From IMG/VR virus record IMGVR_UViG_3300034121_001395: a stretch of 64,000 nucleotides of DNA; one strand, 5' to 3'. Both the position numbers and the translations under genes were made by a program. The notes beneath the pieces are model-generated. The model did not search any database. It worked only from the letters and a program-made list of their open reading frames with translations, and was not told the origin of the DNA. Shown here piece by piece: positions 35,015-41,822 of the stretch. Source of the stretch: a virus. The stretch's first letter is position 1, and the number at the start of each line of letters is the position of its first letter.

Positions 35015-35302
35015 ATCACTTATAGATAAAAAAGATGTTTACATGTGAGAGAGTTTAGTGTATAATGTCTCTGTAAGCAACAAGAAACAAAAGTTTCATA
35101 ACTGAACGCCACATCAACTGCTACTGAAAGTTGAGAACGTCCGTGGTTGTACGGCTTGGATCACTCAGTGATGCGATGTCAAAGGTTTGTATATAGGAGT
35201 TTTCGGTCCCTATAAAAAAGTCATAGTTGATTGCAGTTGCAGCGCACATTTTTTGCGCTCCTCATTCGACATGCCAATATGATTAACCGATAAATTTTCA
35301 AT

Positions 35303-35384: not shown

Positions 35385-35480
35385 GCTAGAGTGTCCTGAA
35401 TTGGTTAAAGGTCCTTCTTTATAAGGGGGTAGAATCGGTCATCGAGCCGTATGTGGGTTCGAGTCCCACCTCTAGTACCA
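35385..35480 (+). tRNA. tRNA with TAT anticodon (Ile) and long variable arm
   Basis: CCTTC-TTTATAA-GGGGG anticodon arm; 23-nt variable region; CCA. Confidence 0.8.
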
Positions 35481-37955: not shown

Positions 37956-38055
37956 CAATGTATAGTGTAGTGGTAGCACGCCCCAAGCAAGGGGTTTCTT
38001 ATCCGATAGGATAGGCGACAACGCCGAGGTGATGGTTCGATTCCATCTGCATTGT
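37956..38055 (+). ncRNA. tRNA-like RNA with extra hairpins
   Basis: acceptor, D-arm and T-arm intact; three hairpins in between; no CCA. Confidence 0.6.
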
Positions 38056-38136: not shown

Positions 38137-38904
38137 ATGAACTACAAAAAGATTTATGATAATCTGATAAAATATAGACAACAAAATATTTTATCAGATG
38201 GATATATTGAACGACACCACATTGTGCCTCGATCACTTGGTGGATCTGATGAAGAAACAAATATAGTGGCTTTAACAGGTCGTGAACATTATGTTGCTCA
38301 TTTACTTCTAGCAAGATATAATAAATGCAGTCAAACTATATATGCACTTTGTATGATGCAAATAAAAAATATTACGAACGAAGGGCGCCCTCTTATTAAA
38401 TCTGGTAGAATGTATGAATGGGCTCGTAAAGAATTTGCTAAATATGTAGCAAAAAATAATATGATTACCTCAAAAGGAGAACAAAATAGTCAATTTGGAA
38501 CTCGTTGGATATGTAATATAACTTTAAAAGAAAATCGTAAAATTTCTAAAGATAGTTTGATTCCAGACGGATGGATTGCCGGTCGCAATAAATGGAAACA
38601 TAAATACTTAACGCGAACAGCAAAGGGTTCTAAAGAACATAGAAATCGAGTAAGAGACGCACGTATAGGAAAAAAACTAAGTATTGAAACAAAAGAAAAA
38701 ATATCTAAAGCAAATAAAAAATCTCGTTTAGGCAATGAATCTTTAACTGGTAGGATTTGGATTAACAATGGAACAATTAACAAAGCAATACTAAAAAATG
38801 AATCTATACCAGAAGGATTTATTAAAGGAAAACTTTCGCGTCATAAGTGTTACGGCAGCACATTAGACTTCCACTCTGAAGGCGTGAGTTCGACCCTCAC
38901 ATGA
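38137..38904 (+). CDS. HNH homing endonuclease (MobE-like N-terminus)
   Basis: MNYKKIYDNLI, ERHHIVPRSLGG...NIVALTGREHYVAH; GTRWI/GRIWINNG repeats. Confidence 0.88.
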   Translation: MNYKKIYDNLIKYRQQNILSDGYIERHHIVPRSLGGSDEETNIVALTGREHYVAHLLLARYNKCSQTIYALCMMQIKNITNEGRPLIKSGRMYEWARKEFAKYVAKNNMITSKGEQNSQFGTRWICNITLKENRKISKDSLIPDGWIAGRNKWKHKYLTRTAKGSKEHRNRVRDARIGKKLSIETKEKISKANKKSRLGNESLTGRIWINNGTINKAILKNESIPEGFIKGKLSRHKCYGSTLDFHSEGVSSTLT

Positions 38905-38911
38905 CGCACCA
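38838..38911 (+). tRNA. tRNA-Gly(TCC) overlapping the HNH 3' end
   Basis: complete cloverleaf, CCA, A73. Confidence 0.85.
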
Positions 38912-39283: not shown

Positions 39284-39386
39284 TTCGTATCATGCGCGAA
39301 TCCAAATATGTCATGACGCAGCTAGGTGTGGTTCCTAGATAGCCCCAGCCCTGGGTGAGTGTAGCAGCAATCTGTTATGGGCAAAT

Positions 39387-39579
39387 ATTTAACGGGTATG
39401 TCGGCTTAGAAGTAGCCATCATATAAGAAGTGGAACTAAACGTGAAGAAGAGGTAATTCGTATGGATACAATTCAATCAAGCCATACACCCTTGCAAAAG
39501 GTACTGCGATACTCGTGAATTGCGTTTCATAGGACGAGCAATCGTAACTCCTTTGGTGTAACAACAACACCCGTTAAAT
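39387..39579 (+). ncRNA. RNA mimicking 23S rRNA H43-H44 (L11-binding GTPase-associated centre)
   Basis: ATGTCGGCTTAGAAGTAGCCATCAT and GTGTAACAAC inside an 11-bp closing helix. Confidence 0.75.
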
Positions 39580-39698
39580 TCATTTTCTATCGTGCGTTTT
39601 GATCGCCCGAAGTATTCAGAGAAAACAGACAGGAAAATGAGTGTAGCAGCAATCTGTCATGGGCAAATTTTCACAAAAATAAGTCCTGGAGGTCAGTT

Positions 39699-39798
39699 TT
39701 TCTCTATACGGGGCTTAACTTCGGGACCTTTTTTCACTTTTTTGAAAAAAGTTGTGTACTTTCTGTGGGTTTTATGCTATAATAACCATGTAAGCAAC
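39699..39798 (+). promoter_or_regulatory. early promoter cassette, copy 3
   Basis: near-identical to copies 2 and 4. Confidence 0.85.
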
Positions 39799-39810
39799 AC
39801 CAACCACAAT

Positions 39811-40023
39811 ATGAAAAACAAATCTTCAATATTTCTCTTATTAGGACGCGTAGACTATGAAGGCGACGACGTATTAGGAGCCTATAGCTCACTTAAAAAA
39901 GCAAATTGCGCACTAGATGCTTATAAGGCTAAGGTTGATGCTGATCGTGTCAACAATCATTATGAAAATACTGCGTATGATGATTATGTTATAAATGAAT
40001 GTGAGGTCAATGCTGAAGTCTGA
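39811..40023 (+). CDS. small early hypothetical protein
   Basis: DYEGDDVLGAYSSLKKA. Confidence 0.6.
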   Translation: MKNKSSIFLLLGRVDYEGDDVLGAYSSLKKANCALDAYKAKVDADRVNNHYENTAYDDYVINECEVNAEV

Positions 40024-41638: not shown

Positions 41639-41728
41639 GGGTGAATGGCAGAGCGGTTTATTGCACTTGTCTTGAAAACAAGAGTGGCTGAAAGGTCACC
41701 GTGGGTTCAAATCCTACTTCACCCGCCA
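41639..41728 (+). tRNA. tRNA-Ser(TGA)
   Basis: cloverleaf, long variable arm, G73. Confidence 0.92.
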
Positions 41729-41822
41729 TTTTTGGAACGTTGGCTGAGTGGCTGAAAGGTCACCGTGGGTTCAAATCCTACTTCACCCGCCATTTTTGGA
41801 ACGTTGGCTGAGTGGCTGAAAG
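41682..41822 (+). repeat. exact 64-bp tandem duplication between the two Ser tRNAs
   Basis: units start 41682 and 41746; bounded by GAGTGGCTGAAAG. Confidence 0.9.

Follow-up and report, generated by a model that had tools for sequence, protein, structure and literature searches.

A phage RNA family resembling the GTPase-associated centre of 23S rRNA

Among the tRNA genes of a 64,000-nt stretch of phage DNA, here called the window, lie two short blocks that read almost base for base like helices 43 and 44 (H43, H44) of 23S rRNA. Their presence raises the question whether the locus is a stray piece of ribosomal RNA or an RNA gene in its own right, and what such an RNA might do for a phage. With high confidence, positions 39387-39579 of the + strand are the gene for a stable non-coding RNA of 193 nt, the ends of which fold into a self-closed copy of the uL11-binding, GTPase-contacting domain of 23S rRNA; a phage-specific closing stem joins near-exact copies of H43 and of the H44 loop. 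The loop-loop docking of the GTPase-associated centre (GAC) via the 1072·(1092-1099) triple appears to be kept in the phage RNA.

The element and its family

The stem arms, the H43 and H44 blocks and the three inner hairpins were all found where the original prediction had placed them (Table 1). The H43 block (39398-39422) is identical to enterobacterial 23S rRNA at 23 of 25 positions, differing at 1061 and 1072, and the H44 block differs at 1092, 1097 and 1099. The E. coli sequence with which these 23 matches had first been counted proved correct when compared with a genuine enterobacterial-type 23S copy in IMG/VR (L050), which reads ATGTTGGCTTAGAAGCAGCCATCAT ttaaagaaa GCGTAATAGC tcactgg. With up to three mismatches allowed, the H43 25-mer occurred once in the window and in none of 100 shuffles. 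The window copy has the H43 hairpin with a UUAGAAGY loop and lower-stem pairing, and carries U/U/A at the triple 1072/1092/1099. At the junction it has A1082, G1086 and A1087, so that the lone pair 1082:1086 and the pair G1087-C1102 are not kept. Folding of the element as a single sequence gave z = -1.6, a value that is uninformative when taken alone. A search of the 64-kb window with Rfam at gathering thresholds returned tRNAs and the tmRNA only and no rRNA, in agreement with the earlier claim that no rRNA flanks the element. The insert gave only chance-level matches to 23S rRNA, with neither a second rRNA copy nor a sarcin-ricin-like piece.

Table 1. The element at 39387-39579 and adjoining features (window coordinates)
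Feature	Position	Strand	Remarks
Direct repeat, copy 1, 34 nt	39356..39389	+	small hairpin and YATGGRCAAAT; abuts the element; repeat family D11
Closing stem, 5' arm ATTTAACGGGT	39387..39397	+	equivalent to top of H42; perfect 11-bp pairing with 39569-39579
H43 equivalent ATGTCGGCTTAGAAGTAGCCATCAT	39398..39422	+	23S 1057-1081; loop with A1067; U at 1072
Junction ATAAGAAGT	39423..39431	+	equivalent of 1082-1090
Insert, 120 nt	39432..39551	+	between 1090 and 1091
Insert closing helix	GGA 39432-34 / TCC 39549-51	+	short
Insert hairpin 1	GTATGG 39460-65 / CCATAC 39482-87	+	compensatory changes in relatives
Insert hairpin 2	CCTT-GCAA-AAGG 39490-39501	+	
Insert hairpin 3	CTCGT 39512-16 / ACGAG 39534-38	+	
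UUUG linker	39552..39555	+	immediately 5' of H44; family signature, not in rRNA
H44 equivalent GTGTAACAAC	39556..39565	+	1091-1100; A1095; U1092-A1099 pair
3' junction AAC	39566..39568	+	ACA in most of the family; UCA in rRNA
Closing stem, 3' arm ACCCGTTAAAT	39569..39579	+	perfect complement of 39387-39397
Direct repeat, copy 2, 34 nt	39638..39671	+	59 nt past the element; repeat family D11
Terminator-like hairpin and T run	39709..39732	+	probable end of the non-coding transcription unit
Repeated promoter-like module	39771-39809		after the terminator-like hairpin; repeat D10; many copies in G001

The ribosomal model for this RNA is the 23S GAC, that is the top of H42 together with H43 and H44 (E. 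coli 1051-1108). Besides the 23 of 25 matches in H43, the phage copy shares with it the H44 loop frame, A1067, A1095, U1060, A1088 and the triple, here as U·U-A, and in members of the phage family the stretch 1051-1090 can equal the bacterial 23S consensus. Unlike the ribosomal domain, the phage RNA stands alone among phage tRNA genes, outside any rRNA operon, and is closed by its own stem of free sequence. It further differs by the 120-nt insert between 1090 and 1091, the added UUUG and A1101 and, in the window copy, by the altered 1082:1086 pair and G1087.

The window element is one member of a large family of structured phage RNAs and not a singleton. A scan of IMG/VR with an exact pattern of the H43 core, allowing either base at 1072, gave 52 loci, one of which was the true 23S gene mentioned above; a shorter pattern gave at least 119 loci. 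When the listed matches were filtered for the presence of an H44 block and a closing stem, 87 copies remained, 76 of them distinct, with lengths of 105-416 nt (median 197). Overall, the family was found in more than 100 unrelated contigs as well as in cultured complete genomes. A covariance model (R1) built from 22 members, the window copy excluded, matched the window over its full length (model positions 1-166) at 39389-39577 with 73.6 bits (E 4e-19), its sole match in 64 kb. True 23S segments scored 59.5 and 49.7 bits with the same model, below the window copy, as expected since the phage RNA is an imitation. No match was obtained at the corresponding site of the nearest relative of the window phage (G001).

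The members follow a common plan: a closing stem of free sequence (H42), two purines, H43, the junction YTAARGAGT (1082-1090; uuAAaGAgu in the bacterial 23S consensus) and a helix-closed insert of variable length, followed by UUUG, the H44 block G[CU]GUARNA[GA]C, ACA and the second stem arm. The UUUG linker is invariant at its three T columns and at least 90% conserved at the G (alignments A2 and A4). The insert site, the UUUG and an A instead of U at 1101 were absent from the true 23S sequences compared, which argues that the family is one lineage and not the product of repeated captures of host rRNA. The insert is present at the same position in nearly every copy, and its length ranges from about 40 to more than 300 nt. 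Two motifs recur in it, CACCCC-GNRA-GGTAAGG in about 16-18 and GTGCGAAATG...TGATGTGC in about 12 of the 76 listed copies, among which no insert motif is general. One copy (L076, 3700-3790) is apparently insert-free and resembles the plain 58-nt domain; R1 matches only its H43 half. Some loci depart from the plan in other ways. Two or more copies or partial copies were seen per locus in L132 and L176 (3996-4344, 5204-5386), and an additional hairpin insertion, located on the 3' strand of H43 right after the equivalent of A1077, occurs in L066, L082, L093, L098 and L113 and likewise in L126, L127, L131, L153 and L156.

Together with L026, L027, L040 and L052, the window copy forms a subclade of five that shares the U/U/A triple, A or G at 1082, G1086, A1087 and AAC in place of ACA after H44. 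The 3' junction of this subclade contains an extra base and stands one register away from that of the other family members. In terms of sequence, the window copy is thus among the less canonical members at the junction.

A hand-written structure was scored on an alignment of 27 sequences and compared with shuffles. In this alignment 95.2% of the paired cells could pair (67.3% in shuffles), double-sided changes were present in 16 of 22 pairs, and the covariation score of 0.646 (0.163 when shuffled) was attained in none of 500 shuffles. When the partners were displaced by one to three columns, pairing fell to 32-56%. All eight pairs of the closing stem show double changes across the family, and the stem covaries among close relatives too (alignment columns 7/241 and 8/240). 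Both of the lower H43 pairs, 1057-1058 / 1080-1081, covary in the family, as do the first four pairs of the insert helix, the first of which (+1/-5) is GC in 13, AU in 7 and UA in 7 sequences. The lone pair 1082:1086 also covaries in the 27 sequences (UA 12, CG 10). The upper H43 stem and its loop are uninformative in this set, being fixed by the search pattern. RNAalifold, applied to five close relatives, recovered the stems and not the ribosomal junction.

Positions 1072, 1092 and 1099 reportedly form a base triple in the ribosomal domain, a result attributed to Conn, Gutell and Draper in 1998. Among the 76 distinct listed copies, the triple was CCG in 61, UUA in 14 and CUA in one, and none of the five other combinations permitted by the search patterns occurred. 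On the alignment, 1072 and 1099 were CG in 22 and UA in five sequences, with zero exceptions. After masking of the triple positions, several U-type cores were nearest to C-type cores (L083-L091 and L121-L088, one difference each), and thus the three-base swap probably occurred several times. The covariation that had been proposed from a comparison with E. coli therefore holds within the phage family itself, and the claim that the tertiary triple is under selection is supported. This covariation is the strongest sign that the H43 and H44 loops may dock in the ribosomal manner.

A scan anchored on the H44 side gave a view of the H43 loop that is free of pattern bias. Most copies carried UUAGAAGC; several had one to three purine changes at 1067-1070, and other variants carried compensatory changes in the stem. 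A1095 was replaced by G or C in three copies. The equivalents of A1067 and A1095 are thus strongly, although not absolutely, kept: the original prediction was right for the window copy, yet neither base is invariant across the family. The H44 loop frame of G1093, U1094 and A1098 is retained in nearly all copies, whereas 1096 and 1097 vary freely. Homologues lacking conservation of the H43 and H44 loops or of the triple had been named beforehand as grounds to abandon the idea; in the homologues collected here, the loops are largely conserved and the triple covaries.

These data bear on the reading of the element as functionless rRNA debris, be it host 23S sequence that was captured or joined in a chimera, or an artefact of assembly. 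Records of phages do sometimes hold true 23S, as Pd_22F and L050 illustrate, but the flanks of the present element are phage-specific and free of rRNA, compensatory changes run throughout its fold, and it owns a covarying closing stem and shares with its relatives the derived insert site, the UUUG and A1101. That over 100 unrelated contigs carry it, as do complete genomes of cultured phages, also speaks against debris, which we consider extremely improbable. The covarying stem, the compensatory changes and the lack of flanking rRNA uphold the view of a stand-alone, self-closed imitation of H42-H43-H44 as opposed to a decaying rRNA fragment.

The family also appears to be new. Rfam 15, searched with the window and eight other loci at gathering thresholds and at loose E-values, returned no named family; the sole match among the loci was a local one of a single member to bacterial LSU rRNA, covering exactly the GAC region (31.6 bits, E 3e-8). 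A full-text literature search found no description of the family, and neither the papers on ROOL and GOLLD nor a paper on 224 motifs mention it, in keeping with the original prediction, which gave no described family for it. As far as found, a widespread, selected and free-standing phage copy of the GAC has no described counterpart. ROOL is likewise located beside phage tRNA genes (PMC12286853). Both ROOL and GOLLD are represented in Rfam, neither matches the element, and those RNAs are not rRNA-like. The tRNA-adjacent setting and a probable processing from tRNA transcripts are features that the element has in common with ROOL and GOLLD and probably also with the stable RNAs C and D of T4.

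Genomic setting and carriers

The window phage is a T4-like myovirus with a DnaB-type helicase 56-61% identical to the helicases of cyanomyoviruses and Melnitz-type phages. The window contains 21 tRNA genes as well as a tmRNA, every one of them encoded on the + strand. The element closes a non-coding stretch of about 670 nt downstream of tRNA-Gly (38838-38911), the tRNA nearest to it, at a distance of 476 nt. The approximately 470 nt between tRNA-Gly and the element (38912 to 39386-39390) are ORF-poor and 89% identical in G001; they gave no Rfam match and no significant folding signal. Downstream, the ORF at 39811-40023 and its neighbours were scanned against PHROGs and Pfam, with no match to a ribosomal protein or anything translation-related. 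The promoter-like module, a TATAAT with a conserved leader, is repeated in the window (39698-39810 and 35054-35092) and has at least seven copies in G001 (L002-L008). Of the co-transcription with tRNAs that had been suggested, the tRNA-rich non-coding unit and the shared strand are in place, but the nearest tRNA is 476 nt away; we infer co-transcription only from strand and layout.

The association with tRNA genes is closer in the family as a whole. A tRNA was present within 4 kb in 53 of the 76 listed copies, the median gap between element and nearest tRNA was 12 nt, and all flanking tRNAs within that distance were encoded on the strand of the element (349 same, 0 opposite). No protein family was a regular neighbour at the 76 listed loci, the best cluster occurring in 6 of 76. 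Many of the carriers are large phages, and complete carrier genomes hold one copy each. Phage-encoded L11 was absent from the five records inspected, namely four carrier genomes and the element-free fragment G001.

In G001, the flanks of which are 89% identical to those of the window element, positions 39390-39697 are missing, and a single copy of the 34-nt repeat stands in place of the two repeats and the element. The element is therefore accessory and may be mobile. The repeat motif, a small hairpin and YATGGRCAAAT, also abuts the element in L026 and L052, where it ends 11 nt inside it. The element may reasonably be supposed to have been gained or lost through recombination at this motif, and the 34-nt repeat may be a recombination or processing signal. 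T4-type phages carry repeat-flanked cassettes that resemble the repeat-bracketed element.

Direct BLAST of the window copy against cultured phages gave no match, and copies in cultured phages were located with a consensus-type query. Complete, unannotated elements were found in Cronobacter phage GAP32 in an intergenic gap, in Pseudomonas phage pf16 between tRNA-Asn and tRNA-Pro, and in Xanthomonas phage XacN1, where a clear, strong terminator follows. In XacN1 (L207), the element lies directly 3' of a gene annotated as 2'-5' RNA ligase and 5' of that terminator. Near-full-length relatives with 82-90% identity are present in XbC2, Kaldavass, CBB, BF and the pEa_SNUABM phages, and whole inserts are conserved at 82-90% among the GAP32-like phages. 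Further copies lie in MAGs and genomes assigned to Bacillota, Bacteroidota, Chloroflexota, Patescibacteria and others. Among the 44 matches from an 18-mer scan of a genome collection, roughly half were due to chance, an 18-mer being too short a pattern for 596 Gb, and matches were counted only when accompanied by a matching H43 and stem. A further candidate, Paenibacillus phage Pd_22F (L212, MZ092003.1, ~83.9-84.1 kb), was rejected as it is true contiguous 23S. This record, labelled a complete phage genome, holds the 23S near one end and probably reflects host contamination or a chimeric assembly.

Possible functions of the RNA

The phage RNA probably works away from the ribosome, as a mimic of the GAC. 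As the best explanation of its features we regard a decoy that binds host uL11, with a probability of roughly 45%. We rank uL11 first because the copied stretch coincides exactly with the autonomous uL11 site and because the positions that determine its fold are invariant or covarying; carriers across many phyla moreover speak for a universal partner, for instance uL11. In isolation, the 1051-1108 fragment is a tight binder of both L11 and thiostrepton, and activation of RelA requires L11. The RNA would be transcribed along with tRNA and other non-coding transcripts, would fold by itself into the 58-nt uL11/thiostrepton domain and would bind host uL11. The free particle would then mimic the stalk base and draw uL11, or factors that recognise uL11-H43/H44, off the ribosomes, and it could compete for such factors. 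A possible outcome would be a weaker uL11-dependent activation of RelA, by which translation might be sustained late in infection.

Several points count against a uL11 decoy. The rebuilt base of H44, with the insert after 1090, the UUUG and A1101, could disturb the contact of A1088 with H43 beside the uL11 site. The subclade of the window copy lacks the canonical 1082:1086 pair and G1087, and its 3' junction is one base longer. The element is accessory, and the nearest relative lives without it. Most uL11 resides in ribosomes and host expression is often shut off, so a sponge may meet little free protein. Moreover, A1067 and A1095 are not known to be needed for binding of the C-terminal domain of uL11, and their retention in most copies suggests a ligand that recognises the cleft as such. 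Binding of L10, also raised in the original prediction, appears unlikely: the closing stem is a simple helix whose sequence varies, and it presumably lacks the portion of the L10 site that resides in lower H42.

The exposed cleft bases fit another reading, which ranks second after uL11 binding: a free RNA at high copy number would soak up host or competitor enzymes that attack the GAC and thereby spare the ribosomes for the brief duration of an infection cycle. Toxins with this target exist, for the Rhs ADP-ribosyltransferase Tre23 of Photorhabdus modifies H44 of 23S rRNA within 1095-1098 and blocks the GTPase activity of EF-G (PMC8661411; cited also in PMC13768812). A1067, A1095 and the H44 loop frame are kept nearly everywhere, which a plain handle for uL11 might not require, and the presence or absence of the element between close relatives would suit an accessory counter-defence gene. 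The RNA is moreover located in tRNA arrays, where other phage RNAs are thought to replace or shield RNAs hit by host defences. Nevertheless, Tre23 is an interbacterial toxin and no anti-phage defence is known against this rRNA site; variation is free at 1096 and 1097, two positions of the stretch mapped for Tre23; a target restricted to some hosts poorly fits the spread over many phyla; and a competing substrate gives only partial protection from an enzyme. We therefore hold a toxin decoy to be unlikely.

Two further readings are less likely than the toxin decoy. The ribosome-like fold might be a very stable, perhaps uL11-protected frame that presents the variable insert as the working part, which could serve as binding site, regulator or assembly module. 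The constant position of the insert over a length range of about 40 to more than 300 nt, the motifs shared by subsets of inserts and the 82-90% conservation of whole inserts in GAP32-like phages would agree with this, but conservation of the family lies in the ribosomal copy, no insert motif is general, and at least one copy (L076) is apparently insert-free, albeit with a model match to its H43 half only. A mere scaffold would also need less selection than is seen at the loop-loop triple and the exposed loop bases, and such a frame appears improbable. Quite improbable, too, is a direct trap or modulator, with or without uL11, of EF-G, the EF-Tu ternary complex, IF2, RelA or the tRNA elbow (A/T-state tRNA). 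The conserved factor-facing cleft bases and the neighbouring translation-related RNA genes (tRNAs, tmRNA) are in its favour; on the ribosome, however, binding of the factors additionally requires the sarcin-ricin loop and L7/L12, the inserts contain no sarcin-ricin-like or other rRNA-like sequence, and the isolated centre would be expected to have a low affinity for factors.

Returning to the uL11 decoy, imitation of rRNA protein-binding sites off the ribosome has a cellular parallel in the leaders of ribosomal-protein mRNAs, such as the L10 leader (RF00557) and the L1-binding leader of the L11 operon. Those leaders act in cis in cellular mRNAs, just upstream of the ribosomal-protein genes that they regulate, and imitate rRNA loosely; the phage RNA, in contrast, is a separate gene and a near base-for-base copy, with no ribosomal-protein gene nearby. 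An identity of the element as such a leader was rejected, given no Rfam leader match and no ribosomal-protein gene among the downstream and neighbouring ORFs scanned. A phage RNA that mimics a host RNA and neutralises a host protein is pseudo-ToxI of phage PhiTE (PMC3475682). Pseudo-ToxI copies the antitoxin RNA of one defence system, whereas the RNA described here copies a universal ribosomal site.

Few parts of the ribosome are as well studied and as conserved as the GAC. A particle of phage GAC RNA and host uL11 might, we tentatively propose, blunt uL11-dependent alarmone signalling or divert toxins aimed at the site. If true, this would be the first virus-encoded decoy of an rRNA functional centre and would add a new layer to the contest of phage and host over translation. 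The family points to a hitherto undescribed route by which viruses might act on translation factors, on uL11, on the stringent response or on toxins directed at the ribosome. Such ideas are easily testable, given that carriers are in culture and that the parent domain is textbook biochemistry with regard to its binding of uL11 and thiostrepton, its ion-dependent folding and its triple mutants. The family is also a natural experiment on the positions that tolerate change in a domain freed from the ribosome.

Other RNA features of the window

Further RNA features were seen in the same window. A tRNA-like Rfam match of 100 nt (37956-38055, 40.9 bits) was not called by ARAGORN; it just precedes a homing-endonuclease ORF (38137-38904, phrog_655), the 3' end of which overlaps tRNA-Gly, and could be an interrupted or intron-bearing tRNA. 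The tmRNA at 51029-51355 matches Rfam over its full length (82 bits) and lies on the strand of the tRNAs. At 35385-35480, a tRNA-Ile(tat) call of 96 nt is over normal tRNA length and may carry an insertion. A perfect tandem duplication of 64 nt at 41682-41809 extends over the 3' half of tRNA-Ser(tga) into the beginning of the following gene.
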